Counted from the first letter of the stretch, positions 1-44,107 are shown. The stretch is DNA of 64,000 nucleotides from an uncultured Spirochaetota bacterium (GCA_963734545.1 CAVTHO010000005.1:576001-640000); one strand, 5' to 3'. Made by a program: numbers and translations. Notes: a model not told the origin generated them from the sequence alone.

Positions 1-494
1 CGCGGCCGTCCCTGGGAATAGATAAAAGCCCATCCCCGGGCGAACGTCATCATGCCCAGCGTTGCAATGAAGGGCGGGATCTTGAGCTTGGAAATCATGG
101 CGCCATTGAGGAATCCGATTGCGAGCCCGAGCCCGAGCCCGATCAACAGTACAATGCCGACCGGCCAGGGGCTCCCGCCCTTGAAGAGACGGTCCATGGC
201 GTCCGCGCTCTGAAGCAGGCTTGCCACCGCCACCGATACGATGGCAACAATGGCGCCCGAGGAGAGATCGATCCCGGCCGTGATGATGCACATCGTAACG
301 CCCAGGGCGATGATCCCGATCACGCTGATCTGCCGCAGGACATTCAGCAGGTTGTTGATCCGCAGGGACACCCCGCCGGAGAGGATGGCGATGATGATGA
401 TGAGCCCGACAAGGATCAGCAGGATGCTGTACTTGCTCATGAACGCCAGGACCGGGGATTCCCTTCTGGTCGAGACCTTTTCGGCTTCAATCAC
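1..494 (-). CDS. Sugar (inositol) ABC transporter permease, RbsC family; runs off the left edge of the window
   Basis: Read manually on the minus strand (not in the ORF track): GGAGG RBS, GTG at 494, then IEAEKVSTRRESPVLAFMSKYSILLILVGLIIIIAILSGG..LNVLRQISVIGIIALGVTMCIITAGIDLSSG, the RbsC GIDLS motif. Confidence 0.88.
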   Translation of the reverse strand, partial: MIEAEKVSTRRESPVLAFMSKYSILLILVGLIIIIAILSGGVSLRINNLLNVLRQISVIGIIALGVTMCIITAGIDLSSGAIVAIVSVAVASLLQSADAMDRLFKGGSPWPVGIVLLIGLGLGLAIGFLNGAMISKLKIPPFIATLGMMTFARGWAFIYSQGRP

Positions 495-515
495 GGCTGT
501 CCTCCAGGGCACGCG

Positions 516-2036
516 TTAGTAGTAGTGAACTTCCTTGAACGTGCTGAGCGGCTCGCCCGTGGCCATGTGCAGGATCTTCTCCTGCGTCGCCTCGGCGCGG
601 CCGATCTCCCCGACTTTCCGTCCCTCGTGCATCACCATGATCCGGTCCGACATGGCGAGAATCTCCGGCATCTCGGAGGAGATCAGGATGATCGCCTTGC
701 CTTCCTTCGCAAGGCTGGACATGATCTTGTAGATCTCGCTCTTCGTGGCCACGTCGATCCCGCGCGTGGGCTCGTCCATGATCAGCAGGGCGGGGACCGT
801 GGCGAGCCACCGCGAGACGAGGACCTTCTGCTGGTTGCCTCCGCTGAGGAACATGACGAGCTGCTCGAGGTTGGGAGTCTTGATCCGCAGGGAGCCCACC
901 GCGTCGTTGCAGAGCTTGCGCAGCGCGCGGTGGTTGATGAAGAGCGCGTTCAGGTTGTTGCGCAGGCTCGGCATGATGATGTTGTCCCGCACCGACAGGT
1001 TCAGGTACAGACCGCTCCTTTTCCTGTCTTCCGTAAGGAAGGCGATCCCGTGCCTGATGGCGTCGTAGGGGCTTTCGATCTTCACGCTCTTTCCGCGGAC
1101 TTTTACCACGCCCGCCTGCTTCGGCGTGACGCCGAAGAGCGCCTCCATCACCTCGGTTCTTCCGGCCCCGATAAGACCCGCAACGCCGAAGATCTCCCCT
1201 TCCCGGACGGAGAAGCTGATATCCCTGAAATAGCCGTGGCGCGTCAGACCCTCCACCTCGAGAACAGGCGCACCAAAGGTCGCATTCTCCTTCTGGAAGA
1301 ACTGGTCGATCGTGCGGCCCACCATCATCTTGATCAGCTTCTCACGGGTCAGGTTGACGCTGTCCTCGCGGCCGACGAACTCGCCGTCCCGGTACACGCT
1401 CACCTCGTCAGTGATCGCAAAGACTTCATCCATCTTGTGGGTGATGTAGATCACGGCGACCCCGCGTTCCTTCAGGCTCTTGATGATGGAGAACAGGTGC
1501 GCTACCTCCTGCTCCGTGAGCGCAGAGGTGGGTTCGTCCATGATGATCAGATCTGCCTTGCGCGAGACCGCCTCCGCGATTTCCACGAGCTGCATCTGGG
1601 CCACGCTCAGCTTGCCCATGATCTGGCGCGGCGTGAGGTTGATGCGAAGCTCCTTGAGCATCTCCGCTGCCGCCGTGTCGATGGCCCGGTGGTCGATGAG
1701 GCCCAGCCTGTTCTTCATTTCCCGGCCGAGAAAGATGTTCTGCGCCACGGTCATGTAGGGAAGCGGGCTCATCTCCTGATGGATCATGGAGATGCCCTGT
1801 GTGAGCGCTTCGTGCACGTTTTCGAAACTGACCTTGTTGCCCCTGAGGGTGATGGATCCCGCATCGGGCCGGTACAGCCCGATTGCGATTTTCATGAGGG
1901 TGGACTTCCCGGCGCCGTTCTCACCCATGACCCCATGCACGGTCCCCGGGCGCACGGAGAGCCCGACACCCCTCAAGGCATGGACGCCGGGAAAGCTCTT
2001 GTGGATGCCCTGCATTTCCAGGATAAACTCACTCAC
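516..2036 (-). CDS. Sugar ABC transporter ATP-binding protein (RbsA/MglA type, two ABC domains)
   Basis: Walker A GENGAGKST, MDEPT twice, LSGGNQQKV signature, 506 aa. Confidence 0.95.
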   Translation of the reverse strand: MSEFILEMQGIHKSFPGVHALRGVGLSVRPGTVHGVMGENGAGKSTLMKIAIGLYRPDAGSITLRGNKVSFENVHEALTQGISMIHQEMSPLPYMTVAQNIFLGREMKNRLGLIDHRAIDTAAAEMLKELRINLTPRQIMGKLSVAQMQLVEIAEAVSRKADLIIMDEPTSALTEQEVAHLFSIIKSLKERGVAVIYITHKMDEVFAITDEVSVYRDGEFVGREDSVNLTREKLIKMMVGRTIDQFFQKENATFGAPVLEVEGLTRHGYFRDISFSVREGEIFGVAGLIGAGRTEVMEALFGVTPKQAGVVKVRGKSVKIESPYDAIRHGIAFLTEDRKRSGLYLNLSVRDNIIMPSLRNNLNALFINHRALRKLCNDAVGSLRIKTPNLEQLVMFLSGGNQQKVLVSRWLATVPALLIMDEPTRGIDVATKSEIYKIMSSLAKEGKAIILISSEMPEILAMSDRIMVMHEGRKVGEIGRAEATQEKILHMATGEPLSTFKEVHYY

Positions 2037-2116: not shown

Positions 2117-3037
2117 TTACTTCATGTACTTCTTGTAGTTGTCGAAGCTGACCGGCTCGAACGGAATTGCCGTGAATACCGGCACGCTCTGCTTGTTGAG
2201 CAGCTTGAGAGCGGTCTGCACGGCGCCCCTGCCCTGGGCCCCGCCGTTCTGGAACACGGTCATGTCCAGCCTCTTGTCGGCAATGTACTTCAAGGCATCC
2301 GAGGTTGCGTCAACCCCGGTCACGATCACCTTGTTCTTCATCTTTTTCTCTTCCAGCACGATCACGGCGCCGATGGCCATCTCGTCGTTGTTGGCGATGA
2401 TCGCATCGATTTTTTCGCCGCTGGCCAGCCAGTTCTCGACCACCGTGACCGCCTGAGCTCTGCCGAAGTCCGCCGTCTGCTCGCGGACGACCTTCATGCC
2501 TGGGTACTTGGCGATGACATCCTTGCTGCCCTGGGTCCGCCCGATCTGCGGGGCGGATCCCATCGAACCCATCAGGATGGCGACGTTGCCCTTTCCGCCG
2601 AGCTTCTTTGCCACGAATTCGGCTTCGAGGTTCCCTGCCACCACTTCGGGAGATGCGACGGCGACGACCTTGCCCGCGGAAAGCGCGGCGTCCTCAGGCT
2701 TGCGGTTGAAATAGACGAGCGGGATCTTGGCATCGAGGCAGAGCTTCGTGATCCGTGGGGCGATGGTCTGGTCGATGACGTGGATGAGAATCGCATCCAC
2801 GCCCTGCGTGATGAAGTTCTCGACCTGCTTGATCTGCTCGTTCGGATCACGTTTGCCGTCCGCGGCGATGATGTCGATGTTGCTCTTCTTCGCCTCGTCG
2901 GTGAGCTGGTCGAGCGCGTAGCGCATGAACACGTCGTTGAAATCCTCGATGGTCACACCCATCTTGAGCTTGCCGGCGGAGAACACCGTCGGCGCGATCA
3001 TGAGCGCGACCATGGCAATGAGAAGAAACTTCCTCAT
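2117..3037 (-). CDS. Sugar ABC transporter substrate-binding protein (RbsB-like, probably inositol)
   Basis: Signal peptide MRKFLLIAMVALMIAPTVFSAG; ANNDEMAIGA and GVDAT periplasmic-binding type I motifs; iol context. Confidence 0.9.
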   Translation of the reverse strand: MRKFLLIAMVALMIAPTVFSAGKLKMGVTIEDFNDVFMRYALDQLTDEAKKSNIDIIAADGKRDPNEQIKQVENFITQGVDAILIHVIDQTIAPRITKLCLDAKIPLVYFNRKPEDAALSAGKVVAVASPEVVAGNLEAEFVAKKLGGKGNVAILMGSMGSAPQIGRTQGSKDVIAKYPGMKVVREQTADFGRAQAVTVVENWLASGEKIDAIIANNDEMAIGAVIVLEEKKMKNKVIVTGVDATSDALKYIADKRLDMTVFQNGGAQGRGAVQTALKLLNKQSVPVFTAIPFEPVSFDNYKKYMK

Positions 3038-3168: not shown

Positions 3169-4257
3169 TCACTTGTCAGGATCCGGGATCATCTGGTCCC
3201 GGATGAGCGCCACGAGATCGTCGACAGCCTTGCTGAACTGCCGCAACGTCCTGCGTGTTGCCCCGAATCCGTCGAACTCCTCCGTCGTCATGCCTGTCTC
3301 CGAGTATGCGCGTCGAAAATCCTCGAACTTCCGCTCCAGCTCTTCCAGGATCCGCCCGTCCACCGGGGTGTCCATTCGTGATTCCACCGTCACGTCGGAA
3401 GCATTGAACCTGTTCTGCCATTCGAACGGGGGGGAAATCACGACGTCACCGCCTATGAACTCACTCCAGTGCAGGTGATTGCGGAATGCGGCGGACAGGA
3501 GGCGCAGCCGGTAGCCTCGTTTCCTGTAGAGCTGATACGCCTTCTTCATCACCGCGACTCCTGCCCAGTCGAATACACGCGGGTCCGCGATGATGCCCTG
3601 CTTTTCCGCCGTCACCCTCAGCCAGTCATCGAGGCGCCCCACCATGAGCGTGCAGACCGGCCCCATCCTGCTGATGTCCTTCTTCTCTTTCTCCCGCTGG
3701 GACAGGCCGCGTTCAACCGCTTCCGCCACGGCGATTGCCTGGGGGAGGGTGAAGCTCACCGTCGCGTTGATGCTGATGCCGCGGCGCGTGGCCTCCTCGA
3801 TGGCCTCCATGCCCGCGCGCGTGGCAGGGATCTTCACGATCATGTTGGGCGCCAGGGCGTCGAAACGGACTGCCTGCTCCACGATGCCGCGCGCGTCGCG
3901 GTAGAGACAGGGGTCGGTCTGGATGGACAGCCGGCCGTTCTTCCCGTTTTCCCTGTCGGAGACCGGCTTCAGGAGCTCGGCGGCCTTGACCGACATCTCC
4001 TCCACCACGCGCCAGGCCACCTGGTCGTCCGCCGCGGCGGGCATTTCCCGAATGATCTGGGCGATCCGGTCCTTCCAGAGGCCCCACTCCTTCTTCAACA
4101 CGGTGAGCACGATCACCGGGTTGCAGGTGGCCCCCGCCGCCCCGTTCACCTCGATGGACGTCCCGAGCTCCTGCAGTGAGCAGGAGTCATTCCACAGCAC
4201 GCTCGGGGTGGTCCGGGTCATTTCGCGCAGCCGGCTCTCCGTCTTTTCAGCTTTCAT
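3169..4257 (-). CDS. Transaldolase-family protein in the iol operon
   Basis: LWNDS, GATCNPVIV, NMIVKIPAT (Schiff-base Lys), INATVSFT, MVGRLDD motifs; 9 nt downstream of iolE. Confidence 0.85.
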   Translation of the reverse strand: MKAEKTESRLREMTRTTPSVLWNDSCSLQELGTSIEVNGAAGATCNPVIVLTVLKKEWGLWKDRIAQIIREMPAAADDQVAWRVVEEMSVKAAELLKPVSDRENGKNGRLSIQTDPCLYRDARGIVEQAVRFDALAPNMIVKIPATRAGMEAIEEATRRGISINATVSFTLPQAIAVAEAVERGLSQREKEKKDISRMGPVCTLMVGRLDDWLRVTAEKQGIIADPRVFDWAGVAVMKKAYQLYRKRGYRLRLLSAAFRNHLHWSEFIGGDVVISPPFEWQNRFNASDVTVESRMDTPVDGRILEELERKFEDFRRAYSETGMTTEEFDGFGATRRTLRQFSKAVDDLVALIRDQMIPDPDK

Positions 4258-4266
4258 GTCATCCCC

Positions 4267-5160
4267 TCACAATCCCGTCTTTTCCCGAATGAAGCTGCGC
4301 GCTTTCAGCGCATACTCGAAAGGGTTGGCCCGCGCGGGATCCTGCTCGGCCTCCACCACGTACCAACCGCTGTAGCCGCTCGCCTCCAGGCCGCGGAATA
4401 CCGGCTCGAACCTGATCCCTCCGTCTCCGGGCACGGTGAAGACCCCTGCCTGCACGGCCTGAAGGAAGCTCATGCGCTCGCTTTTCACGCGCGCCAGCAC
4501 CTCCGGGCGGACGTCCTTGAGGTGCACGTGGCGGATGCGTGCCGCGTGCCGATTCAGGACAGCCGTGCAGTCTTCACCGGAAAAGGCGAGGTGACCCGTG
4601 TCGTACAACAGGGACAGCCGGGCGGGATCCGTCATGTCCATCAGGCGGTCGATCTCCGCGGCGGTCTGCACGCCCGTCCCCATGTGATGATGGTAGGTGA
4701 GCGTGATGCCCTTCTCCCGGGCCCGTGCGCCCAGGGCGTTCAGCCCTTCGGCGAGGCGTTTCCATTCCTCGTCGGTGAATTGCGGCTTCTCCTCGAAGAT
4801 GGGAGCATCCTGCTTGCCCTGAATCGAGTGTCCCTGTTCCGCTGCCCCGATGATCCGCGCGCCCACGGCGAAGAGGAAATCGCGGTGCGCGACAAAAGCC
4901 TTCTCCACTTCCTCGTAGGGCCGGGTCGTGAGGAACGAGCTGAACCACGCATTGCAGATCGTGAGGCCGCGAAGGTCCAGGTATCTTTTCAGCACCTGCG
5001 GGTCACGGGGGTACTTGTTTCCCACCTCGCTGCCCTCGTAGCCCGCCAGAGCCATCTCGGAAATGCACTGTTCGAAGGTATTGCCCCCCCCGAGCTCCGG
5101 GAGGTCGTCGTTGGTCCAGGCAATCGGCGCGATGCCCAGGCGCACCCTTTTCTCTTTCAT
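4267..5160 (-). CDS. iolE: myo-inosose-2 dehydratase
   Basis: [42 protein letters not shown] motifs. Confidence 0.95.
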
Positions 5161-5169
5161 TCCTTCCTC

Positions 5170-7035
5170 CTAGAACTTCCGCGCCGATTCGACTTCCCGG
5201 GTGATCTTCCTGGCCGCCGCCTCCACCTTCGGGTTTTCCGAAACCTGCGCGGTCCCCACGCGCCACCAGGATTCGTAGTCATGCGTCATGGATTTCGGGG
5301 TCACCTTCGCGTCGATCACCGTGGAGAGGGTGCCGGCAAGCGCGCTCTTCACCGCGGCGCGGAACTGGTCCATGGTCGTGACGGAATGCCCGCGCGCCCC
5401 GTAGCTCTCGCCGTTCTTGGCGAAGTCCAGGCTGATCAGGGGGCCGGTCAATCTGCCCGTGCCGGGGTCGCGCCGGCGAAGGTCGTTGCCGAACTTCGTG
5501 ATTCCCTGGCTGGTCTGCAGGTTGTCGATGCATTGGTAGCCCGCGTTGTCGAAGACCACGATGGTGATCTTGATGCCCTCCTGGATTGCAGTGAGCAGCT
5601 CCGAGTGCAGCATCACGTAAGAGCCGTCCCCCACGAGCGCAAAGACCTCGCGGTGGGGCTCCGCCATTTTGGCGCCGACTGCCGCCGCGATCTCGTAGCC
5701 CATGCAGGAGAACCCGTATTCCATGTGGTAGGAGCCCGGGACCCGCGCGCGCCACACCCGCTGCAGGTCTCCGGGGATGCTTCCCGAGGCGCCGACGACA
5801 ATGGCATCACGGGGCAGGAGCTTCTCATTGAGCTCGCCCAGGAGACGGACCTGGGAGAGTCCTGCGGGGTCCTCTTCCGTGTACAGGCGGTCTTCCTCTT
5901 TCCTCCACTCGGCGCGCGCCAGCCTTATTTCATCAGCCCAGCCGGATTTCCAGCCCGCCCCACGAAGCGCGGCGGTGAGCGCCTTCAACGTCTCACGCGC
6001 GTCCGCACGCACCGCGAGGGCGTTCATCTTTGCCGCATCGAAGGAGTTCACGTTGATGCCGAGGACCGCGGCGCGAGGATTGCGGAAGAGGTTGCGCGAG
6101 CCGGAAGTGAAGTCCCCCAGCCGCGTGCCCACCGCGATGACGAGGTCAGCGTCATGGGCAATCCTGTTGGCAGCCAGGCCGCCGGTGACCCCGATGCCGC
6201 CAAGGTTGAGCGGATCATCCCAGGGAAGAACGCCCTTGCCCGCCTGTGTTTCGCCGACGGGGATCCCGAATGCCGCGCAGAACTCCGCCAGCGCCTGTGC
6301 CGCCTCCGAGTAGCGGGCGCCGCCGCCGCAGATCAGGATCGGACGCGCGCGGGACCGTATCAAAGCAACGGCCCGTTCGATCTCCCCCGCGGTCGGCGCG
6401 CGTCTCTCCACGTGATGCACCCGCTTTTCGAGGAACTCTTCCGGATACTCGTATGGCTCTCCCTGCACGTCTTGAGGAAGGGCAAGGGTCACCGCGCCCG
6501 TCTCCGCCGGGTCCGTCAGCACGCGCATGGCATTGATGCAGGCGGCCATGAGCTGCTCGGGACGGTTGATCCTGTCCCAGTAGCGGCTGACCGCGCGGAA
6601 TGCGTCGTTTGCCGTCGCCGTGTAGTCGTCCCAGCGCTCCACCTGCTGCAGCACGGGATCGGGCTGCCGGCAGGCAAAAACGTCTCCCGGAAGCAGAAGG
6701 ACGGGGATGCGGTTCACCGAGGCCACGCCTGCCGCCGTGACCATGTTCAGTGCGCCCGGGCCTATCGAGCTCGTCACGGCAAGGATCTGCCTCCGGTTGA
6801 GCTGCTTCGCGTAGCCCACCGCCATGTGGGCCGCGCCCTGTTCGTTGTGGCCCTGGAAGTACGTGAGGCCGTGCTTTCCCTCGGCAAGCGCCTCGCCGAG
6901 CCCGACCACGTTTCCGTGGCCGAAGATGCCGCACACGCCCCGCACGAACTTGATCTCCACGCCGTCGAACTCTGCGTACTGCGCGTCCAGGAACTGCAGG
7001 AGAGCCTGCGCCATTGTCAGCCGGACTGTCTTCAT
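5170..7035 (-). CDS. iolD: 3D-(3,5/4)-trihydroxycyclohexane-1,2-dione acylhydrolase (ThDP)
   Basis: MKTVRLTMAQAL, GIFGHGNV, SSIGPGA, PDPVLQQ, EYGFSCMGYE, GDGSY motifs. Confidence 0.96.
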   Translation of the reverse strand: MKTVRLTMAQALLQFLDAQYAEFDGVEIKFVRGVCGIFGHGNVVGLGEALAEGKHGLTYFQGHNEQGAAHMAVGYAKQLNRRQILAVTSSIGPGALNMVTAAGVASVNRIPVLLLPGDVFACRQPDPVLQQVERWDDYTATANDAFRAVSRYWDRINRPEQLMAACINAMRVLTDPAETGAVTLALPQDVQGEPYEYPEEFLEKRVHHVERRAPTAGEIERAVALIRSRARPILICGGGARYSEAAQALAEFCAAFGIPVGETQAGKGVLPWDDPLNLGGIGVTGGLAANRIAHDADLVIAVGTRLGDFTSGSRNLFRNPRAAVLGINVNSFDAAKMNALAVRADARETLKALTAALRGAGWKSGWADEIRLARAEWRKEEDRLYTEEDPAGLSQVRLLGELNEKLLPRDAIVVGASGSIPGDLQRVWRARVPGSYHMEYGFSCMGYEIAAAVGAKMAEPHREVFALVGDGSYVMLHSELLTAIQEGIKITIVVFDNAGYQCIDNLQTSQGITKFGNDLRRRDPGTGRLTGPLISLDFAKNGESYGARGHSVTTMDQFRAAVKSALAGTLSTVIDAKVTPKSMTHDYESWWRVGTAQVSENPKVEAAARKITREVESARKF

Positions 7036-8039
7036 ACGTCCACCTCCGCGATTTTGACCGCGCGGCCTTCCGCGAGCGACTTCTTCGCGGCAAATCCCAT
7101 CAGGAGCGGCTTCAAGCCGTCGATGTCGCCGACAGGGCTCGGTTTCCCGTCGATCACGGTGTCGAAGAACGCGTTCATCTCGTCGACAAAGGCCTGGCGG
7201 TAGCGCTCGAGGAAGAAGTACAGCGGCTTGTCGGACGCCACGCCCGCCTCGTTGGAGAGAGTGACGGAGGAAGGGGTGTCGTTCCCGCAGGCCAGGGCCC
7301 CCTTGGAGCCGAATACTTCGACCCGCTGATCGTAGCCGTAGGTGGCCCTGCGGGAGTTGTCGATGACGCCGATGCAGCCGTTCTGGAAAGCGAGGGTCAC
7401 GACGGCCGTGTCGACGTCTCCCGCCTTTCCGATGGCCGGGTCCACGAGCACGGCCCCCCGGGCGTACACCTCGACGGCGTCGGAGCCCGAGAGATAGCGG
7501 GCCATGTCGAAATCGTGGATGGTCATGTCCAGGAAGATGCCGCCGGAGACCTTCACGTACTCGGGAGGCGGAGGGGCGGGATCGCGCGAGGTGATGCGGA
7601 CAATGTGCGGATCGCCGACGACCCCCTGCCGGACCTGGTCCCTGATCCGCCTGAAATTGTGATCGAACCTGCGATTGAAGCCCACCTGCAGCGTCACGTG
7701 CGCCTTTTGGGCGGCGGCCAGGGCCTTCTTCACCTTGGCCACGGTGAGGTCCACCGGCTTCTCGCAGAAGATGTGCTTCCCCTTTTCCGCCGCGGCCATC
7801 ACGATGTCGGCGTGCGTGTCGGTCGAGCTGCAGATGAGCACCGCGCCGATCTCGGGATCCGCGAGCACGTCGCGGAAATCCGCGCTCACCTGCCTTATAC
7901 CCAGTCCCGAGGCCCAGTCACGCACCTTGTCCGCCGCGACATCGGCGATCCGCGCGATGGTGACCCGTGGAATACTGTGCGCGATGTTTTCCGCGTGGAT
8001 CCTTCCGATTCTCCCCGCTCCGATCAGCCCCACCTTCAT
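7032..8039 (-). CDS. iolG: Inositol 2-dehydrogenase
   Basis: GAGRIG, CEKP, GFNRRFD, ITSRDP, DMTIHDFD, YGYDQRVEV. Confidence 0.92.
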   Translation of the reverse strand: MKVGLIGAGRIGRIHAENIAHSIPRVTIARIADVAADKVRDWASGLGIRQVSADFRDVLADPEIGAVLICSSTDTHADIVMAAAEKGKHIFCEKPVDLTVAKVKKALAAAQKAHVTLQVGFNRRFDHNFRRIRDQVRQGVVGDPHIVRITSRDPAPPPPEYVKVSGGIFLDMTIHDFDMARYLSGSDAVEVYARGAVLVDPAIGKAGDVDTAVVTLAFQNGCIGVIDNSRRATYGYDQRVEVFGSKGALACGNDTPSSVTLSNEAGVASDKPLYFFLERYRQAFVDEMNAFFDTVIDGKPSPVGDIDGLKPLLMGFAAKKSLAEGRAVKIAEVDV

Positions 8040-8048
8040 ACGTCCCTC

Positions 8049-9063
8049 CTACAACCGGATGATCTGTTCTTCCCGGAATGACCGGGTCGCGGCGAACGCG
8101 AGCTTCGTGGCCATGGTGCCGTCATGCACGCCCGCCTGCGGCGCGCGGGTTTCCCGAATACAGTCGACGAACTCCTGGACCTCGGCGAGGTAAGCGGACT
8201 CGAAGCGTTCCAGGAAGCTCTGCGAGCACTCGCGGACCACGCCGCGCGCGTCCAGCAGCTCGACAAAGTCCCTCTGCGGCACGCTGGCGATCCTGAGCGA
8301 GGCCTTTGTGCCGATGATCTCCGTCTCCACCGCGTATCCGTGCGCCGCCGTCCTCCCGGCCAGGAAGAAGGCCATGGCACCGTTGTCAAAGCGCACCAGG
8401 GCGGCGAGGTTGTCACCGTCGCCGTACGCGGCGAACTCCGGGTGCGCATAGCAGCCGCCCGTGGCGTAGACGGTTTGCGCCTCTCCGCCGAGCATCCAGC
8501 GCGCCAGGTCGATGTCGTGCACGGACATGTCGAGGAATTGTCCGCCCGAGGACGGCGCGAATCGTATGGCGCCCTCGATGGCGGACTCCGGATCGACCGA
8601 GTAGCCGCGAAAGAGGATCGGCCGGCCGATGTATCCCTCGTCGATCAGTTTCTTCGCGCGGCGGTAGGAAGGATCGAACCGGCGCATGAAGCCGAGCATG
8701 AAGGTCCTGTCCGGGTGACGCGCAACCGCGCTTTCCGCCTGGACGCACTCTTCCAGGGTCACGCCAAGAGGCTTTTCGCAGAAGACGTGAAGACCCGCCT
8801 CCAGCGCCTGCTCGATCTGCCCGGCAGTGGACCGCGGAGCTCGAAGCGATAAGAACCGCGTCCAGCTCCTCGTCCTCCCGCATGCGCGCGAAATCCGCAT
8901 ACCCGCGCGGCACCGCCCACTCGCGCCGGGCTCTCTCCACGCGCTCCGTCTCGAGCGCGCACACGGCACTCAGCTCCGCACCGTTGACGCGGAAAGCGAT
9001 GTTCTCCGCATGCCGCATCCCGAGTCTTCCCAGGCCGACCACACCGATGCGCACCTTCTGCAA
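8049..9063 (-). CDS. Gfo/Idh/MocA inositol dehydrogenase paralogue; frameshift near 8822
   Basis: N-terminus in ORF 8413..9063 (GLGRLG..VLIASSSAVHC) continues in ORF 8049..8969 (QIEQALEAGLHVFCEKP, GFMRRFD, DMSVHDID). Confidence 0.88.
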
Positions 9064-9160
9064 CGCCGCTCCTCCTTGCGCGGTCTATCCCGCACCGCCC
9101 GAAGGGCGGTTTCCACGCGCGGGCCCTACTGTCTTTTGCTTGCCATCGCCCTTCACGCTC

Positions 9161-10225
9161 CTACGCCTCGCTTGATTGACGGATCACGAGCTTCGGGGAG
9201 AGAAGAGTCCGCCGCGCGCCGCGCGGCGCGCCGCCCGCCCGGCGCGTGCGGATCAGCTCGATCAACCGCTCGCAGGTGACCAGGGAGAGCTCTTCGCGGG
9301 GCTGGTGGATGGTGGTGAGGGAGGGGCGCATGCTGGCGGCGAGGTCCGTGTCGTCGTATCCGATCACGGAGACGTCCTGCGGCACGCGCAGACCGAGCTC
9401 CTTGACGGCAAGCAGAGATCCGATGGCCATGAGGTCGTTTGCAGCGAACAGGGCATCGTAACCCTGTACGTTCCGGCCGAGACGCATCACCGCCTCGTAG
9501 CCGGACTCCATGGTCTGGTCCCCCTGCAGGAGGTCCTCCGGGCGCAGCGCGATCTCCGATTCCGAAAGACCGCGGCGCAGCCCTGCCAGACGGAGCCGGT
9601 ATTCCCGTTCGGTCTCCTTCACACTTTCGGTTGTCAGGCACAGGACGCGCTTCCTGCCAAGGGCGCCGAAGTGCTTCCCCGCGAGGTAGCCGCCGTACTC
9701 GTTGTCCGGGTAGATGACGTCGACGTCCGCCGGGCACTGATCCGTCGGCGGGTAGTGGGAGAACACGAACGGCACTTCCTTCGCATGCAGGTAGTCGATC
9801 AACTCCTGCTCGAACACGGGCTGCACGATGATGAGCCCGTCCACCTTCTTGCGCGCGACGAGCTTCGTGATATTGTTTCCGCCGGTGAAGTGGTTGTTGA
9901 GAAACGCCACGAGCAGATCTATGTCGTTGCACTCGAGCACGCTGCGCAGAGAGCTGTGCAGCGTGCCGTGGTAGAGATTCACGCCGAAGCGGTCGTACTC
10001 GGGCGGGAGGATGATGCCGATCGTGCCCACGCGGCGGGTGATGAGGCTTCGCGCGTGGGAATTGAACTCGAAGCCGAGCGCGTCTGCAATGCCGCGGATG
10101 CGCTTGCGCGTCTTTTCGGGAATCAGAGTCACATCATTCAGGCTCCGCGACACGGTTGCCATGCTGACTCCGGCAGCTCTTGCCACATCGCGAAGTGTCG
10201 TCTCCTTGCAAACGTTTGCATTCAT
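9161..10225 (-). CDS. LacI-family transcriptional regulator (probable iol repressor)
   Basis: TLRDVARAAGVSMATVSRSL HTH; ANDLMAIG, VSVIGYDD, LTTIHQP. Confidence 0.93.
   Translation of the reverse strand: MNANVCKETTLRDVARAAGVSMATVSRSLNDVTLIPEKTRKRIRGIADALGFEFNSHARSLITRRVGTIGIILPPEYDRFGVNLYHGTLHSSLRSVLECNDIDLLVAFLNNHFTGGNNITKLVARKKVDGLIIVQPVFEQELIDYLHAKEVPFVFSHYPPTDQCPADVDVIYPDNEYGGYLAGKHFGALGRKRVLCLTTESVKETEREYRLRLAGLRRGLSESEIALRPEDLLQGDQTMESGYEAVMRLGRNVQGYDALFAANDLMAIGSLLAVKELGLRVPQDVSVIGYDDTDLAASMRPSLTTIHQPREELSLVTCERLIELIRTRRAGGAPRGARRTLLSPKLVIRQSSEA
10207..10220. promoter_or_regulatory. LacI operator overlapping the 5' end of the repressor gene (autoregulation)
   Basis: Perfect 14-bp palindrome TGCAAACGTTTGCA; a TTGACA lies about 40 bp upstream on the minus strand. 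Confidence 0.78.
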
Positions 10226-10311
10226 TCAGGATCCAGTTATTTTCATTTGCGTTTTTTTGTCAAGAGTGCGGGGTGGGCAGGTGTGTCCATCGAAGCTTTC
10301 CGCCGATGCGG

Positions 10312-13154
10312 TCAGCCTCTGGCCAGCCACGCCGTTCCACAGATGTTCTTGAAATCGCACCAGGGGCATACCGACTTCAAGTCCCGCGCAGGGGCGAAGG
10401 GAACGTCGGGTGAAACGATCTCCCTGAGCAGGCCGACGATCACGGATTCCAGCTTCGGCCAGGCTGCCTCCGCCTCCTTCGCGTCCGTGAACAGGGGCAA
10501 TTCGATGCGCGCGTCCATTTCGGTGCGTCCAAGGAGAAGGAACATGGCCTGGATGTCCGACTGGAGCGCGGCCGGTTTCCGCGGCATACAGCAGGACATA
10601 GAAGGGAAGCTGGAGCGTGCCGATGGCCGCGCTCCAGGTGGCGCGGTCCTCGATGACGAGCTTCTTGAGCCTCAATGCGTAGGCGGCGCGGTGGGCGGAG
10701 GTCTTGTAGTCGATCAGGCGCGGCGTGCCGTCGCGCTCCTGCACCACGTCCATGCGCCCCCGAAGGCTGAATCCTTCCCTGACCGCGGTCGCGTCGTGCT
10801 CCAGGGCCTGGAGGATCACCCGATGCTCCGTCGCCAATGCCCGAATGTAGCGGTCGACGAAATCCCGCAGGTGACGTCTGATCTGGTCGCGCAGGAGCCT
10901 GTTCGCCCCGGTCTCCGCGGGTCCAAACGATTCTGCAAAGAGCGCGTCCACGAGTCGGACCATCGCGGCGGGATCGGCATCCTCCGCGGAGAGCGGGCCG
11001 GCCTGTCCGCCCGGAGAAGTACTCGAAAAGCACCTTGTGGACGAAAGTGCCGATCTCTGCCGCGCCGATCTCTCCGGTGGTTTCCTCGCGCTGACCCAGC
11101 TTGAGAACGAATCTATAGTAGAATTTCAGAGGGCATTTCAGGTATGCATCGAGCCCGGTTGCGCTGTATTCGCGCAATCGGAGCCAATCCACCATGTCAG
11201 GGGTCTTGTTGACGGGCGCCGGGGGGCTGTTCGAGAGATCGACCCTGTACTGGATCGGGTGGACCAGGCGCTGCTCATCCAGGGTGCCCTGGGCCTTCTG
11301 GCGCTCCCAGAGAAAGCGTTCCACGAATCGGGACCTTTCCTTCCCGCCGCTTTGCACGGAGAACAGGTGGAGCTCGCGGGCGCCCGCCGTCAGCGTCTCG
11401 AAGTGGTATGCGGCGATGTCCTCCACGTCACGATAGGTGGAGAGGCCGAGCGCCGCGCGGACGGGGAAGGGGAGGAGGGTGTTCTCCGAGCCTGTTTCAG
11501 GAAGCGCTCCCTCGTCGGCATCCAGCACGAACACCCTCTCGAATCGCAGGCTGCGCGTCTCGAGGGCGCCCAGGACCTGGAGCCCGTGCAGGGGGGTTCC
11601 TTCGAAGGGGAGATAGCAGGTCTGCAGGTAGCGGCGGAGCAGCACGAAGTAGCTGGCCGTGTCGTTGAAGGATTTCACCGACATGAGGGACCGGGAGATG
11701 GTCTCCAGGGACCGGACAAACGACTCGGAGAAAGGCGTGAAATAGGGATGGTCGCGGGCCGTGCTCTCGTCGTGCACCCAGGCGATGAGCTGGATGCAGC
11801 GCTCGGCGAAGTCCCGCACGCTCCGGAAGGACCGGAACTTCGTGATGGTGCGTTCATGGATGTCGACGAGGTGCGCGCGAAGCGCCGCTGCCATTGCATC
11901 CCTGTTTTCCTGCGTTATCCTTCGCGCCGCCTCGTCGAACAAGGCGAGGTCATTCTCGATCTCCTCCAGCGTGGCGAACCTGCGCGTCCGGGTATGCGCG
12001 AGGCGTTCTTCCAGGGCGTGGAAGAGGACCCGCGTGGCCTCCGCCGATGCGCCGAGCCGGATGTTCTTCACGTACGGGTGCAGCACGAAAGAGACATAGT
12101 CCGGCAGATAGACGCGTTCCTCGTCCATGGAGCCGACGAGCTCCATGAGCGTGTTGAGAAAGCCGTAGAGCGGCGTGCGCGGAAGCGGGTAGCCGAGGGA
12201 GACGTTGTAGCTTTCCTCGTCGAACCGGGAAAGGCATTGCCGCACGAGGGGGAAGAGGGTGTCCGGCGTGGGGAGCACGATGAGCGTGCCGCTGTCAGGG
12301 GATTTCAATGCCGCGTTCAGCGCAAAGACCTGCCCATGGGTGTCCGGGCTGCTGTAGAAATGGACCTCGGGCCTCCGGGGTGTCGATTCCTCTCCCGTCT
12401 TTTCCGCGCCGGCGACGGCGAGCCCTTTGATCCTTTTCCGCAGTCCCGGGCCGTCCTGAAACACGAGCTGGACGGAAGGCCATTCCTTGAGCTTCCGGAA
12501 CAGGGCCGCCTCCGACTCGGTAAGGGCGTAGAACCCGGCAAGGATGATCAGGCCGCGCACGGGAAGGTCGCCCGGCTCGATTGCCTCCGCAACCAGGCGG
12601 TAACGGGAGGACCTGGTGGAGAGACCCTGCTCCCGCACGGCGGGATAAAAAGCATCGTAGAAATAGGCGAGAGACTGGAGCCGCTCCCGGGAACGCGGCG
12701 GCACTTCCTGCTCGACGAGAGTCTGCACCTCCGCCGCCTTCCGTGAGGATACATTCTCGATCAGGAGCTCCTCGAGATCGCGGTGGATCTTCAGCCCGAT
12801 GGGGAAAAAGCTGTCCAGTGTCATGAACGCCTTGCCGCCGAGCGGCCGGGCCGCGGCAAGCTGGATATCGTGCAGGACGGCCACCGCGTCTATGGGCTCG
12901 AGTTTCGGCCGGGTGAGCCCCGCGCGCTCATCTCGTGTCTCGAAAACCAGGTCGATGAGCTCGTCCATCGAGAGAACCCGCGGCGGCACGAAGCTCTTTT
13001 TCAATTCCTCCGCAAGGCGCCGGCGGAGAAAATGGGCAGGCCGCTTGCCGGGGAAAACCACGAGAGATTCCCGCACGTCTTTCCCGGCGTCCGTCAGCCG
13101 CCGGGCTATCTCATCGATGAGGCTCGCTGCCGCGGGGAGGATCGTGGCGTTCAA
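10312..13154 (-). CDS. addB: AddB/RexB-like PD-(D/E)XK nuclease subunit; frameshifts near 10995 and 10570
   Basis: VVFPGKR, YSATGLDAYLKCPLKFYY, GTFVH, LRGRMDVV..LIDYKT, QLPFY, C-terminal CPWCDFKNIC Fe-S staple, spread over three frames. Confidence 0.82.
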
Positions 13155-16100
13155 ACGACCCTCCGGACGCTTCCCGCATCGACAAAGGCGAGGAGGGCTT
13201 CGACGGTCCTGCCCGGATACACCTGGCGCAGGATTCGCGCGTACGCGCGCACGTCCTCCTCGTAGCGGCCGGTCTCTTCCGCGCCCGTCTTGAAGTCCAC
13301 AACGGTCACGCGATCTCCGTCCACGACGACCCTGTCCATCCGGAAAAGCCTGCCTGCCTCATCGCAGAACTCCTGCTCGCGAAGCACGAGGCGTCCGGGC
13401 GCGCGGGGTGAACAGTCTCCCGAGCTCCGTGCCGCGCAGAACGCGCGCAAGGGCCTCTGCGGCGTCCGCGAGCCCTGCCGGATCTTCCCGGACCTCGCGC
13501 GCGGTCCGCGCGGCCGCTGCCCGCAGGGTCTCTCGTGCGTCGGCGCCGATGTACTCCACGAGCTCCAGCATCCTGTGCACCCGTTCGCCCCGTCGGCGCT
13601 CGAGCCGGCCCAGCCGGCCGCTGGCAAACGGGGCAGGGACCGGCCGGGTCTCATGGGAGAGGGGGGGGCCGGACTCCGGTGGGGCGGTCTCGAAGACAGG
13701 AACGCCTTTCTCCGCTGAAGCCTGAAACCCGTCGGCAGGCAGGAGGTCGAAGGGGAATGTGTCCCGCTCCCGCTTCACGCCGATCACGTACAATTCGCGC
13801 TTTGCGCGGGTGAGAGCAACGTACAGCCCGTTCAGCCGGTTGACTTTCTCTTTGGCAGCCTCCTCTTCGTAAAGGGCGCGCAGCGTGGGGTCCTTGTCCG
13901 CCACCGACCGGGTAAGCCGAACAAGGCTCACCTCGCCGCCCTGCCGCACGAGCGTGTGCTCGAATCCGCGGCTGGATTCTCCGTAGAGGAGAACGATGAC
14001 CACAGGAAACCCGAGGCCTTTCGCCTTGTGCACGGTCATGGCGCGCACGGACTCGGCACCGCGCGGAACGTCAATGGCCCACTCCCCGCCGTCGCCACCG
14101 GCCTGTCCCAGGAACTCGCGCAGGCTGTTCTTCCCCAGGCCTTCGAAATCCTTGACCGTTTCCAGGAGCTTGGCGAGCGTGGCTTCCTCCTCGCCGGCCC
14201 GCGCAAAGACGTCGAAGACGGCGTACGCTTCGCTCACCAGGTCATAGAGGGGCAGGTATCCGGCTGACCTGAAGAGACCGGCAAAGCAATCCTTCCACAA
14301 AGCGGAATATTCACGCTGAAATGCCTTGTACAGGGGCCTCTCGTTGCGGCTCCGGAACAGAAACTCGTGAAGACGGGCCATGTCGGTCCACCCGTGGCGC
14401 TGCGCCAGGCTGCGCGTGAAGATGTCGCTCAGGAGGAACGTCGCAAAGGCCAGGTCGTCCGGAGGTGAGTCGAGGAATCCGAGCAGCGCCAGCATCTCCC
14501 CGGCGATCTTTCTGCAACGCACGTCCAGGCTGCTGAAGGAGATGAACGGGATTCTCATTTCGTTCAGCCAGGAGGTCGCGGTGACGATCTGGTCGTTCCG
14601 GGAAGCCAGGAGGGCGATGTCGCCCCACCGGTATCCGCGGCGCCTCAGGTCTTCCATGATGTGCCGGAGCTTCACGCGCTCCGGCGGGTCCTCGTCCTCC
14701 CTCTCGAGGATGTGCATCTCCACGTAGCCTTGATCGCTGCCCGCGCGCGGCTTCTGCGTCCAGGCATCCAGCCCGCTCCTGCGCGCCGCATCCCGGTACT
14801 CCGGCGACGCATGCGCGTTCGTGCGGAAGACCTCGGAAACAAACTCGACCACCCGCGGTCGGCTGCGCCAGTTGATCGGCAGCTCGCGTACCGAGAGCCC
14901 GGCCGACGGGAATGGAGTGGTCGTTTCGAGGGATTTCATGATCGTGTAGTCCGCGTGCCGGAACCCGTAGATTGCCTGCTTGGTGTCGCCGACCACGAAG
15001 AGACTCCCGCCCATGGCCAGGGAGTTCTCCACCAGGGGATAGAGATTGCGCCACTGCAGCGGCGATGTGTCCTGGAACTCGTCCACCAGGAAGTGCCAGA
15101 CCCGGTCCCCGATTCTGAAGTAGATCTCGGGGATGATGTCCTGGGTGAGGTACGCGCCGAGGATGCGGTTGATGTCGCCGATGAACACCCTGCCTTGTCC
15201 GCGCTTTACCTTTTCCACCGTCGCGGAGAGCGCCGCGTGCAGCCGGAGGTAGGGCTGATAGTACGCGCGGGCACGGCACCCGGCGTACTCTCCCACCAGC
15301 AGGGCAGTCTGCTCCCAGGCAGCCTGGATCTCCCCCTGCCGGGTCTGCGCGCCCGTATCACGCCGGCCCGGCTTCTTCACCGGACCGCGCTTCATGCTGC
15401 GCCCGGCAATGTCGCCGAACCTGCCTTTCCGGGCATTCGCCAGGGCCTCGCGGAAGGCCGACCGGGGGCTTTCTTCGAGCCCCGAGGCGTCCACCATGCC
15501 GGCCACATGCTCGAGACTCTCGCGGATCCGCGTCTCCAGGTGCCGCAGGCGCGGACGCAACTCCAGGGATGACACCTGCTCCTCCCGCGCGGACAGCCTC
15601 GATTCGATCTTCTTGACCTCGTCGAGCAGGGGCGACGCCGGGTCCCACTGATAAGGGTCCTCCGCTCCCCTGAACCCGAGCACGGCGTGGATGGTCTCGT
15701 CGAGGAGCGCGGCCGCGGGGCTGCCTTCCCGCGCCTCGCGCAGGAAGAGAGTGAACGCATAGTCGATGAGCGGAGCGGGGTCCATGACGATCTCGAAATC
15801 GGGGCTGTAGCCGAAATCCAGCGCCGATGCGCGAAACACCGTGGACATGAAGCTGTCGATGGTGCTCACCTGGAAGTCGGAATACCGGGTCAGGATTTCC
15901 TCGATGAGCTCTCCTGCCCGGCGGGCCGTGCGCTCCTCGCCGCCCTCGGTGACCGCCGCCAGCTCCGCCAGCCTTTCCGGATGCCGGAGGTGCGTCATTT
16001 TCAGCCAGCCGAGGACGCTCTCCCTCATCTCTCGCGAGGCATTGTTGGAGAAGGTGATGGCAAGGATATTCCGGAGGTCGTTCTTCGGCACCCTGTGCGA

Positions 16101-16217
16101 CAGGAGGAACTGCGCAAAGCGCTCCGTCAGCGCAAACGTCTTCCCTGAGCCGGCAGAGGCCTTGAGGACCGTGACGCTCGGAAATCGAATCAGGGCGTCC
16201 GGTTCAAGGTCAGGCAT
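13151..16217 (-). CDS. addA: AddA/UvrD-family ATP-dependent helicase-nuclease; frameshift near 13395
   Basis: ASAGSGKT, AITFSN, VDEFQDT, VGDTKQAIYGFR, MTVHKAKGL, YVALTRAK; nuclease RMDRV..VVDFKTG in the second frame. Confidence 0.88.
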
Positions 16218-16247
16218 GGATGTCGATGATAACAATGGCGGATAGCG

Positions 16248-16275
16248 TTGACAAGGAGCGCGGGAGGACTATATT
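16248..16275 (+). promoter_or_regulatory. Putative sigma-70 promoter for the priming glycosyltransferase
   Basis: TTGACA-16 nt-TATATT in the divergent addA/sugar transferase intergenic region. Confidence 0.55.
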
Positions 16276-16577
16276 TGCGATCGGAATGGAGTTTTGATGA
16301 AAAGACGGATCCCTGCACCGGCCCCTTTCCGCAGATTGCCGGCGTTCCCCCCTGGGCCCGCCCGGCGCGCGGAAATACTGTCATAGCGGCTGCTGAAATC
16401 GGCTGTGGGTGATGGTACCTTCGGTCCGGGGGGAGAGCGGCAGTGATCCCGGCTGAGAGAAGACACGCTGCCCGGATGCGACATGCGCTGGGCAGGGCAG
16501 GATTGGACGGTTCGACGCCCGCGCGGAGCGAGGCGGACGTCCTTCTGCCCCGCTCCGTTCCGGCCGCTCGCGGCCGG

Positions 16578-18017
16578 ATGAGCGCGAGAAAGCACAAGAT
16601 CCTCATCCTGCTTCTTGTTCAACTCGCATTCTTCACCGGCCTCTGGTTTGCGGCGCGAAGCGTGGCCCTGAGGATGGATCCATGGGCGAACATCCTGTCC
16701 CACCGGCTCGTTCTGCCGCTCGCGCTCTTCTTCCTGTCCTACTTCCTCCTCAACTGGAGGAACATCTACTCGCGGGACTACCACTACTACCTTCGACGCG
16801 CCCACAGAACCGTCCTGAAAAATGGTCTGCTGCCCATGGCCCTCGCCTGCCTTGGCTTCCTGGCCCTGGGGACCTGGCGGACCGTGCCTGTTCCGCTGAT
16901 GCTCGTCTTTCTCGCCGCGGGATTCGTGAGCTTCGCCATTGCCGACGGCAGTCAGTACCTCTGGATCCGTTATCTGAGCCGCCTCGGGTATTTCCGGAGG
17001 AAGGTCCTCGTGGTGGCCGCCCCCGGCATACCCCTCTCGACCCGCCTCGGCGTGCATGACTTCGGCTCCACGAAAATCTACGCCGGCGAGATCGACCGAT
17101 TGAACGGTGCCTGGGTCTGGAGGCCTGCAGGGGGTGGGGCTCCGAAAGTATTGAGGGAGTTCTCGCAGGTCAAGACGATCATCCTGAAGGAAAACATCGG
17201 GGACGTTCTCCTGTTCGTCGACGGATCCGCCGATCGGTACTTCGAGAGGGAGCTCGTCGACTACTGCCAGTCCCTGCCCATCAGCTACTCCCTCGTGCCG
17301 GAGAAGGCGGGGATGCAGCAGAATGGAATCGCAAGCCTCCTCTTTCCGAACATTTCCGTGTCCGAGAGATTCGCGGGGCCCCGCGATTCTCTCACGGCGG
17401 TTTCCGCGAAAAGGCTTCTGGATATCGCGGTATCGCTGCTCTGCCTCACCCTCTTCCTTCCCGCAGGGCTGCTCATCGCGCTGGCGATCCTCGTCCGGGA
17501 CGGCCCCCCCGTGTTCTACGTGTCCGAGCGGATAGGCAAGAATGGAAAACCCATGCGCTTCTTCAAGTTCCGGACGATGATCCGCAACGCAGAGGAGCAG
17601 AAGGAGAAGCTTCTCTCCTTCAACGCCCGGAGCGACGGACCACTGTTCAAGATGAAGAACGATCCGAGGGTCACCGCGATCGGAAGGCTGCTCCGGAGGT
17701 ACAGTCTCGACGAGTTTCCCCAGTTCCTGAACGTCCTCCTGGGCACCATGAGCCTCGTAGGGCCGAGACCGCACCTCCCGCGTGAGGTGGCGGAGTATCG
17801 GGAGGGCGACTACCTGCGGTTGGAATGCATGCCCGGTATCGTCGGAATTCCCCAGGTGTCGAAGAGGAACGTCACCATGGGCTTCCGTGAGTGGGTGGAG
17901 CTCGACCTCTCCTACCGGCGGAGCTGGTCGCTTTCCCTCGACATGGGCATCATAAAAAAGACGGTCAGCCTGTTTTTCCGTGCGCTCTTCTCGCGCCACG
18001 GTTCCGGCCACTACTGA
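16578..18017 (+). CDS. Polyprenyl glycosylphosphotransferase (WcaJ/WbaP/CpsE-type priming sugar transferase)
   Basis: N-terminal TM helices; KRLLDI, FFKFRTM, DPRVT, SLDEFPQFLNVLLGTMSLVGPRP; start placed at ATG 16578. Confidence 0.92.
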   Translation: MSARKHKILILLLVQLAFFTGLWFAARSVALRMDPWANILSHRLVLPLALFFLSYFLLNWRNIYSRDYHYYLRRAHRTVLKNGLLPMALACLGFLALGTWRTVPVPLMLVFLAAGFVSFAIADGSQYLWIRYLSRLGYFRRKVLVVAAPGIPLSTRLGVHDFGSTKIYAGEIDRLNGAWVWRPAGGGAPKVLREFSQVKTIILKENIGDVLLFVDGSADRYFERELVDYCQSLPISYSLVPEKAGMQQNGIASLLFPNISVSERFAGPRDSLTAVSAKRLLDIAVSLLCLTLFLPAGLLIALAILVRDGPPVFYVSERIGKNGKPMRFFKFRTMIRNAEEQKEKLLSFNARSDGPLFKMKNDPRVTAIGRLLRRYSLDEFPQFLNVLLGTMSLVGPRPHLPREVAEYREGDYLRLECMPGIVGIPQVSKRNVTMGFREWVELDLSYRRSWSLSLDMGIIKKTVSLFFRALFSRHGSGHY

Positions 18018-43207: not shown

Positions 43208-44107
43208 TGAAGATACTCTTTGCCGGAGACGCGAACATCGATTTCCAGATGACGGGGCTGAGCTCCCTTCCCCGGGTGGACAAGGAGATACTTTGCACCG
43301 GGTTCGCAGCGGCCATCGGGGGCTCAACAACCATCTGTGCCGCTGCGTACGCCAACCTGGGGGGGAACGCGTCCTTTTGCGGACTGCTGGGAGACGACCA
43401 GAACGGGCGTCTCATGGAAAAAATGCTCCGAGACGCAGGGGTCGGGCTGGACCTCCTTCGGTTCACGCAGGAACATTCCACCGGAGTCACCGTGAACCTG
43501 GTCCATCGGCTCCACACGGACCCAGATCACCTACCCGGGGACGCTCACGACCGTGGACGAGACGGAGGTCATTCTTCAGGCGATGGGAGGCTTTTCCCAT
43601 ATCCATCTCTCAGGGGTCTATCCTCTGGCCCGTTTCCTGCCGCGGATCGGGACCGTGCTGCGCGGCGCGCGTGACGCCGGGGTCACCTCGTCCCTGGACA
43701 CCCAGTGGGATCACGAGGAGAAGTGGGTCCATCTTCCTGACTGGCTTCCTTTGCTGACGTATCTCTTTGTCAACGAAGAAGAATCCCTCTCCATCACGAA
43801 AAAGGCGGATGTCGATTCTGCCTACCGCGAGCTCGCGTCCCGCACGGCGTGTCCGCTCATCACGCGGGGTGCATCCGGTGTCCATGCGCGCGGCCGGCAT
43901 TTTCCCTCGTTCGCAGTCGAGGTGCGCGACACCACGGGCGCAGGAGACACGTTTGCCGCAGGGTTCCTTTTCGCGACGAAGGAAAAATCGATGCCGTTTG
44001 ACGACGCCGTCCGATTCGGCTGCGCCGCCGCCGCGCTCTGCTGCACCTTCACGGGCGGCGTCAGCCCGGAATTGCGCGCAGAGCGGGTCATGCGGCTCAT
44101 GAGTTGA
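43204..44107 (+). CDS. PfkB-family carbohydrate kinase; frameshift near 43507
   Basis: IGGS, GDDQNG, then NEEE and DTTGAGDTFAAGF. Confidence 0.88.

Follow-up and report, generated by a model that had tools for sequence, protein, structure and literature searches.

Among the carbon sources that derive from plants, the myo-inositol of phytate and lipids is a major one, and its catabolic pathway is found in textbooks. In Bacillus subtilis, 2-deoxy-5-keto-gluconate is phosphorylated by IolC and then cleaved by IolJ to dihydroxyacetone phosphate (DHAP) and malonate semialdehyde. A transaldolase acts in one branch of sulfoglycolysis. According to passages of its published description, the sulfo-TAL pathway employs SftI, SftT and SftD in turn, its cleavage depends on glyceraldehyde-3-phosphate (GAP) or on erythrose-4-phosphate, and label enters fructose-6-phosphate (F6P) (PMC7491151). 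Here we describe an inositol operon that carries a transaldolase-like (TAL-like) gene after iolE. It lies in a 64,000-nucleotide stretch, called the window, from an uncultured Spirochaetota bacterium (GCA_963734545.1, CAVTHO010000005.1:576001-640000; G000:C5:576001-640000 in our numbering of genomes and contigs). From its sequence and its neighbours, we propose that the TAL-like enzyme replaces the kinase IolC and the aldolase IolJ at the end of myo-inositol catabolism. Sequence, structure model and analogy together indicate that it probably hands the dihydroxyacetone unit of 2-deoxy-5-keto-gluconate on to GAP, so that F6P and malonate semialdehyde are formed, as put forward in an original prediction.

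The inositol operon and its transaldolase-like enzyme

The genome has a size of 5.14 Mb in 10 contigs and is 89% complete, with a GC content of 0.61-0.66 around the operon. A co-directional string of genes on the minus strand consists of lacI, an iolG paralogue, iolG, iolD, iolE, the TAL-like gene and a sugar ABC importer, so that every gene named by the original prediction was found, in the same order. Genes of the iol part overlap by 4 nt or are separated by 9 nt, and the predicted 9-nt gap between iolE and the TAL-like gene is at 4258-4266. Three enzymes scored above their NCBIfam cut-offs: the inositol 2-dehydrogenase IolG (7032..8039; TIGR04380, 476.9 bits, cut-off 355), the ring-opening trihydroxycyclohexane-1,2-dione hydrolase IolD (5170..7035; TIGR04377, 911.9 bits, cut-off 715) and the myo-inosose-2 dehydratase IolE (4267..5160; TIGR04379, 421.2 bits, cut-off 290). 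The TAL-like gene (3169..4257) encodes a 362-aa protein of the transaldolase/fructose-6-phosphate aldolase (TAL/FSA) family, with a PF00923 match of 137.1 bits (cut-off 27) over residues 21-348. Its closest relatives carry the label Spirochaetia.

As judged from sequence and structure model, the protein is a predicted divergent class I (Schiff-base) enzyme of the TAL/FSA superfamily. It scored below every NCBIfam transaldolase or FSA equivalog, the best being NF002881 (120.9 bits vs 367), next to TIGR00876 (88.9 vs 233.75), TIGR00874 (61.5 vs 396) and the FSA model TIGR00875 (46 vs 246). The AlphaFold model (pLDDT 96.8) is a TIM barrel, which matched the solved transaldolases 7bbx, 3clm and 3r5e with TM scores of 0.80-0.82 at 22% identity. 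The closest structures were the transaldolases of N. gonorrhoeae (3clm) and C. glutamicum (3r5e).

Lys142 aligns with the Schiff-base lysine of the 'IKIPAT' motif in 3r5e and 3clm. Also kept relative to these two structures are the N-terminal Asp24, the TxNP motif, the N-x-T motif and Arg208, which follows the 'FVSR' strand. The position of the catalytic Glu is taken by Gln113 ('GRLSIQTDP', vs 'GRVSIEVDP' in 3r5e and 'GFVSLEVSP' in 3clm), and that of the Phe (Tal) or Tyr (FSA) by Met205. For orientation, we take D17, E96, K132, F178, R181 and R228 to be the corresponding TalB residues, with their known roles; PDB titles list TalB mutants at most of these positions, E96Q/F178Y included. Across the family alignment, Lys142 and Gln113 were invariant (110/110 rows each), Asp24 was present in 109 of the 110 rows, Met205 in 82/82 core-clade rows, and Arg208 and Arg259 in 82/82 core and low-GC rows. 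The two arginines would suit a conserved anion-binding pair, fit for a carboxylate or a phosphate. The original prediction had pointed to ATCNPV as a variant motif. The motif is present (GATCNPVIV), but the variant of importance is the substitution of Gln for the catalytic Glu.

That iolB, iolC, iolJ and iolA are missing from the window, as had been noted, is literally true. The claim of 'no iolB' is nevertheless misleading, because a putative IolB-like isomerase, an activity needed to make the ketose, is encoded just outside. This KduI/IolB-family cupin (PF04962, 203 bits; TIGR04378, 111.6 bits vs a cut-off of 205) lies ~1.5 kb past the left edge of the window; together with an AP_endonuc_2 TIM-barrel gene it spans 0.6-2.4 kb left of the window, both genes being convergent on the operon. 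A methylglyoxal synthase gene (L020:14518-15666, minus strand), ~2.4 kb left of the window, directly adjoins the cupin. An IolA/MMSDH gene is found on contig C4 (C4:600045-601472; TIGR01722, 538 bits vs a cut-off of 448.5), with no iol neighbours. IolD, IolE, the TAL-like gene and the IolB-like gene each occur as a single copy in the genome.

The whole-genome search that the original prediction had called for recovered the IolB-like protein and IolA, and neither IolC nor IolJ, so iolC and iolJ do not lie just outside the window. No IolC over the cut-off was present in the 89%-complete genome. The best match reached 184 bits vs 300, was equally fructokinase-like, and sat in a GntR/amino-acid ABC context. 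A DUF2090 aldolase was likewise not found in the whole-genome search, nor was an IolJ; two intact class II aldolases were found, both unlinked to any PfkB kinase, and no kinase-aldolase pair was seen near the operon. The genome holds at least eight PfkB-family kinases. Within the window itself there is a weak, split PfkB gene (~43297-44047), as well as an aldehyde dehydrogenase other than MMSDH (~47530-48783). At C7:490161 there is another TAL/FSA gene, a short one, which can cover the pentose-phosphate pathway. PF00923 matched once more at C3:284055, in the vicinity of a PfkB kinase; this weak remnant, surrounded by a GntR/branched-chain ABC context and not by an iol cluster, was discarded.

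Upstream, the cluster begins with a LacI-family transcriptional regulator (9161..10225, minus strand; PF00356 and Peripla_BP_3), followed by the IolG paralogue, a Gfo/Idh/MocA dehydrogenase (~8049..9063, minus strand) split over two frames, with its N- and C-terminal halves in open reading frames (ORFs) 8413-9063 and 8049-8969. The frameshift near 8821 is due to one extra base in a G run, as compared to the 75%-identical gene of locus L031. Several other genes of the assembly, PfkB kinases and a class II aldolase, likewise have family matches that run through two or three neighbouring frames (the split PfkB gene of the window, C3:122267-123145, C6:345230-346007, C8:168392-169251 and C4:653935-654744). 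These multi-frame matches suggest a general indel error rate of the assembly, rather than many pseudogenes. Because other genes are split too, the frameshift in the IolG paralogue may be a homopolymer error of the assembly; it could be either this or real.

Downstream, at a distance of 131 nt from the TAL-like gene, lies the gene for the importer's periplasmic sugar-binding protein, which is RbsB-like (2117..3037; PF13407, 190 bits) and shares 82-87% identity with its counterparts in the nearest relatives L030, L031 and L033. It is followed by an RbsA/AraG-like transporter ATPase with two ABC domains (516..2036; 562 bits) and the N-terminal part of an RbsC-like permease (1..512; 255 bits), all on the minus strand. 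The permease gene crosses the left edge of the window, and its entire length is L020:17484-18512 (minus strand).

Gene neighbourhoods of the family

All 8000 scored candidate relatives of the TAL-like protein were significant, and the best 120 were at least 72% identical to it. Among 50%-identity cluster representatives there were 329 matches at E<=1e-30, and at least 590 stretches of GTDB species genomes encode a relative. Synteny was counted in the best 80 of these loci, with 64-79% identity to the window protein. By record title or tree label, they belong to Spirochaetota, Chloroflexota, Bacteroidota, Acidobacteriota, Planctomycetota and Myxococcota. Most of the compared genomes are metagenome-assembled genomes (MAGs).

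The surroundings of the TAL-like gene, up to a distance of 10 kb, were searched for neighbours by tblastn, with the proteins of the Spirochaetota genome and those of a canonical operon as queries. IolG-like proteins were found in 52/80 loci, IolB in 45, IolD in 43, LacI-like proteins in 37, IolE-like proteins in 36 and MMSDH in 25. IolC, IolJ, other class II aldolases and DhaK were each found in none of the 80 loci within this distance. An all-against-all clustering of the ORFs of the loci agreed with the tblastn results. The combination of the TAL-like gene with iol genes is thus beyond chance, recurring in 43-45 of the 80 related loci. The expectation that homologues would sit in iol clusters was borne out: the gene is a conserved member of such clusters in several phyla, often beside IolA.

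In a Bacteroidales locus (L044) and an Acidobacteriota locus (L066), IolD, IolB and MMSDH all scored over their cut-offs, the operon of the former being TAL-iolB-iolD-iolA-iolE-iolG. A module of IolB, TAL-like protein and MMSDH occurs together in these two loci and in L110 and L111. A metagenomic protein of 655 aa (P0129) is a natural fusion of IolE and TAL-like parts, with 341 bits vs a cut-off of 290 for the IolE part. Another protein (P0154, 566 aa), in which a TAL-like part is joined to an incomplete IolB, may result from faulty gene calling. The contig of L033 has two TAL-like copies, at 10001-11077 (no full-length open frame called) and 15773-16874 (a two-piece match). There, IolD lies ~11 kb upstream, just past the end of the locus.

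Fifty genomes with a TAL-like gene were searched for IolC, 43 of them with IolD beside the gene and 7 others. IolC was over the cut-off in none of the 50, and any match at E<=1e-40 was present in only 6. In control genomes, the same model was over the cut-off in 3/14. An even sample of 301 Spirochaetota genomes contained IolD in 14, including the genome studied here. The other 13 had IolC over the cut-off in 9 cases, mostly adjoining IolD, and a TAL-like gene of 44-46% identity in 3. One spirochaete genome (G289) has the TAL gene without IolC. In two low-GC (32-34%) spirochaete genomes, both systems are present. In G343 they occupy two clusters, one of iolB-iolD-TAL-iolA and a second of iolJ-iolC-iolB...iolD-iolE (L111/L113; C27, C32). 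In G335 a single operon reads iolJ-iolC-iolB-TAL-iolA-ABC-iolD-iolE-iolG-iolG (L110; C368), and its TAL-like protein is 45% identical. The predicted anti-correlation with iolC and iolJ therefore stood as the difference between 0/50 genomes with the gene and 9/13 other IolD-positive Spirochaetota, and failed in G335, which carries all of these genes in one operon. As a strict universal rule, it was ruled out by G335 and G343. The swap is the rule in the core clade, and both solutions can coexist in the divergent low-GC branch.

A complete 2.8-Mb spirochaete genome (G300) has iolB-iolD-iolG together (L120, G300:C1:2512000-2531999). No IolE, IolC or TAL-like gene was found within 10 kb of them, and no IolC over the cut-off genome-wide. 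It may represent yet another variant.

The proposed reaction and its alternatives

The substrate, acceptor and products that we infer for the TAL-like enzyme fit into the following route. Inositol would be imported by the ABC system and oxidised by IolG, and the resulting product dehydrated by IolE. Ring opening by IolD would give 5-deoxy-glucuronate, which the neighbouring IolB-like cupin would isomerise to 2-deoxy-5-keto-D-gluconate. The keto group would then react with Lys142 of the TAL-like enzyme to form a Schiff base, and a retro-aldol reaction would cut the C3-C4 bond. The released malonate semialdehyde would be oxidised to acetyl-CoA by IolA, encoded on contig C4, and the enzyme-bound dihydroxyacetone enamine would be passed to GAP to form F6P, with glycolysis regenerating the acceptor.

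The idea that C4-C6 of the substrate is a dihydroxyacetone unit works chemically, as far as Fischer-projection reasoning goes. Written from C6, 2-deoxy-5-keto-D-gluconate would be CH2OH-CO-CHOH-CHOH-CH2-COO-, with the D-threo (3S,4R) configuration of fructose. Since its stereocentres match those of D-fructose, it can be regarded as an analogue of F6P, with CH2-COO- in place of CHOH-CH2OPO3. The predicted saving of one ATP did not survive: before GAP can be regenerated, phosphofructokinase (PFK) has to phosphorylate F6P again, and this would bring the net ATP cost to that of the canonical route unless a pyrophosphate (PPi)-dependent enzyme were used, and no long-type PPi-PFK was found in a search made for it. 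The likely benefits are a direct entry at the level of hexose phosphates and the use of one dedicated gene in place of two.

Several observations weigh against the proposed replacement. With Gln for Glu and Met for Phe/Tyr, the protein lacks the acid-base catalyst that is usual in transaldolase as well as in FSA. The local IolB-like cupin is just 26-30% identical to IolBs that are over the cut-off or located in canonical operons. The TAL-like gene is not simply a substitute in the lineage of G335, and most of the genomes compared are MAGs, which may be incomplete. Three Dak1 genes in the genome (C5:730881-731948, C5:745407-746618 and a third on contig C3) mean that free dihydroxyacetone could be handled there. 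Moreover, no active-site difference between iol-linked and non-iol-linked TAL proteins was found at 40 compared sites; as the residues are the same across contexts, the donor need not be 2-deoxy-5-keto-gluconate. Further points of this kind come from gene contexts other than IolD. In the nearest relative (L030:5887-20307; 79% TAL identity), an orthologous IolG (84%) and the same ABC importer (87-92%) are accompanied, in place of IolD and IolE, by IolM (515 vs 450 bits), IolO (336 vs 300) and IolN (308 vs 245), as named by NCBIfam models for which a Thermotoga maritima control scored over the cut-off. In L053 and L068 (6496-11086), the TAL gene is found with an ABC importer, a FucI-like isomerase and a tungsten-type aldehyde:ferredoxin oxidoreductase (AOR). 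By their gene content, these loci are apparently kinase-free sugar operons. The two C5 copies of Dak1 are 96% identical and ~14 kb apart, outside the window, and the L030 operon has two IolO-like epimerases.

The family is thus not tied to IolD, with close relatives in both IolM/IolN/IolO and FucI/AOR operons. IolD was not found in the genome of L030, and it was absent altogether from 4/5 tested genomes of non-IolD contexts. IolN adjoins the TAL gene in 5/80 loci (L030, L032, L036, L037 and L057). Three of these, the Chloroflexota loci L032, L036 and L037, pair the TAL gene with IolN over the cut-off, and also carry a Zn-dependent dehydrogenase, an ABC importer, an amidohydrolase, a cupin and a DUF6282 protein. 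In five Acidobacteriota loci, an aldehyde dehydrogenase adjoins the TAL gene, without IolD. A quick maximum-likelihood tree was calculated from 110 rows, comprising 78 of the 80 loci, the window, three low-GC proteins and 28 distant representatives; L103, which was not clustered, and a 294-aa fragment of L033 were left out. The window protein grouped with L030 and L031, and its supported set of 12 rows had 8 'other', 2 AOR and 2 iol contexts. Contexts were interleaved on the tree, and the iol label needs at least seven changes. Given these varied contexts, the clade is tied to two inositol architectures and, more broadly, to kinase-free operons of an isomerase and an aldehyde-oxidising enzyme.

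Three other explanations were considered. An FSA-like aldolase would split 2-deoxy-5-keto-gluconate into malonate semialdehyde and free dihydroxyacetone, to be followed by a Dak-type kinase. Gln at the catalytic Glu position is the state of FSA, the E96Q/F178Y exchange has been engineered in TalB according to PDB titles, and the three Dak1 genes would supply the kinase. This reading is nonetheless unlikely: the catalytic Tyr position of FSA is Met throughout the core clade, and the chain of 362 aa is of the transaldolase type, vs ~220 aa for the FSA type. In addition, Dak1 was found in just 15/50 TAL-bearing genomes, in 9/43 with IolD beside the gene and in 0/80 loci (a count of Dak1 kinases, in MAGs that may be incomplete). 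Because Dak1 is so scarce in these genomes and absent from the loci, transfer to GAP is favoured over the release of free dihydroxyacetone.

It is also possible, though improbable, that the enzyme uses another donor, such as 5-keto-L-gluconate, D-tagaturonate or an inosose-derived product, and that in IolD clusters it forms an accessory or gluconeogenic branch instead of replacing IolC and IolJ. The IolM/IolN/IolO and FucI-like/AOR operons, the coexistence with iolC and iolJ in G335 and the identical residues in all contexts speak for this, as does the presence of IolN over the cut-off in the genome itself (C6:363072-363992, 491 bits vs 245). That IolN gene is far from the iol operon, and a profile search of the genome, with the T. 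maritima control over the cut-off, found no IolM that reached it. The 43 genomes with IolD, IolB and often IolA beside the TAL gene, and with IolC absent, would however be left with no other enzyme for the last cleavage. Besides, we reason that neither 5-keto-L-gluconate nor D-tagaturonate, which depart from fructose at C3 or C4, would have the 3S,4R configuration needed by known TAL/FSA enzymes. Very unlikely, finally, is a division of labour in which an unrecognised kinase and an aldolase elsewhere do the jobs of IolC and IolJ, while the TAL-like gene only rebalances sugar phosphates. Candidates exist among the PfkB-family kinases and the two intact class II aldolases of this incompletely recovered genome, but they are neither near the operon nor near each other. 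Homologues of IolC and IolJ are missing from the 80 loci, as is IolC over the cut-off from the 50 genomes. The short TAL/FSA gene is already present for rebalancing, and the exchange of Glu for Gln disfavours an ordinary transaldolase for F6P and sedoheptulose-7-phosphate.

Searches of open full-text literature turned up no paper that links a transaldolase or FSA to inositol catabolism or to 2-deoxy-5-keto-gluconate; subscription journals and supplements were not covered. In these searches, neither a gut inositol metabolism review of 2025 nor a survey of genomes for inositol use of 2022 registered the word 'transaldolase'. The exchange of IolC and IolJ for the TAL-like enzyme, seen in six phyla, suggests that a textbook pathway can end in a way not described before. 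Genome surveys that score inositol use by iolC and iolJ would miss many carriers among Acidobacteriota, Bacteroidota, Chloroflexota and Spirochaetota. If the proposed reaction is true, the enzyme would be the second natural transaldolase, after that of sulfoglycolysis, to harvest an unphosphorylated sugar. It would make F6P from a keto-acid, and its catalysis in a TAL fold without the canonical Glu would be of interest for aldolase engineering. More tentatively, and with considerable doubt, the whole clade of 'Gln-type' transaldolases might be a new functional class, which would take dihydroxyacetone from keto-sugar acids and ketoses that are not phosphorylated, with an acid-base set-up that differs from those of transaldolase and FSA. 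Such enzymes would end at least two inositol pathways, the IolD/IolB and the IolM/IolN/IolO type, as well as other kinase-free sugar routes such as the FucI-like/AOR operons, with carbon entering directly as F6P in many uncultured soil and sediment bacteria.

Comparison with described systems

Measured against the canonical iol pathway, IolG, IolE and IolD are all present over their NCBIfam cut-offs and IolA is present but unlinked, whereas IolC and IolJ/DUF2090 are missing. The TAL-like enzyme would take the same pathway position as B. subtilis IolC and IolJ, cut the same C3-C4 bond and likewise deliver malonate semialdehyde to IolA. IolC (5-dehydro-2-deoxygluconokinase) and IolJ (a class II DKGP aldolase) belong to families unrelated to the TAL-like protein; they require ATP and yield DHAP, whereas the TAL-like enzyme is proposed to convert GAP to F6P.

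With the classical transaldolases (E. coli TalB, 3clm, 3r5e) and FSA, the protein shares the TIM barrel, the Schiff-base Lys, the Asp and the Asn/Thr motif, as well as the Arg that aligns with R181 of TalB. It differs from them by Gln for Glu and Met for Phe/Tyr, which corresponds to neither of the known acid-base arrangements.

The Thermotoga maritima-type route (IolG, IolM, IolN, IolO) also has 5-keto-hexonates as products, and such genes are coupled with the TAL-like clade in L030 and in three Chloroflexota operons. The published Thermotoga route reportedly ends in uronate catabolism, with no transaldolase. The window operon differs by using the IolE/IolD route.

The sulfoglycolytic enzymes SftT, SqvA and BmSF-TAL provide the analogy. 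According to passages of the published account, an isomerase there makes an unphosphorylated, anion-tailed fructose analogue, dihydroxyacetone is transferred to GAP to give F6P, and the C3 aldehyde-acid is oxidised by a co-encoded dehydrogenase (PMC7491151). The SftT module of an isomerase, a transaldolase and an aldehyde dehydrogenase without a sugar kinase resembles those of L044, L066, L110 and L111. However, SftT is short (~220 aa), and BmSF-TAL (8bc3) matches the window protein weakly, over residues 103-179 (E 7.8e-7). The tail of the sulfoglycolytic substrate is a sulfonate, whereas the enzyme of the inositol operon would act on a carboxylate tail, with Gln at the place of the catalytic Glu.

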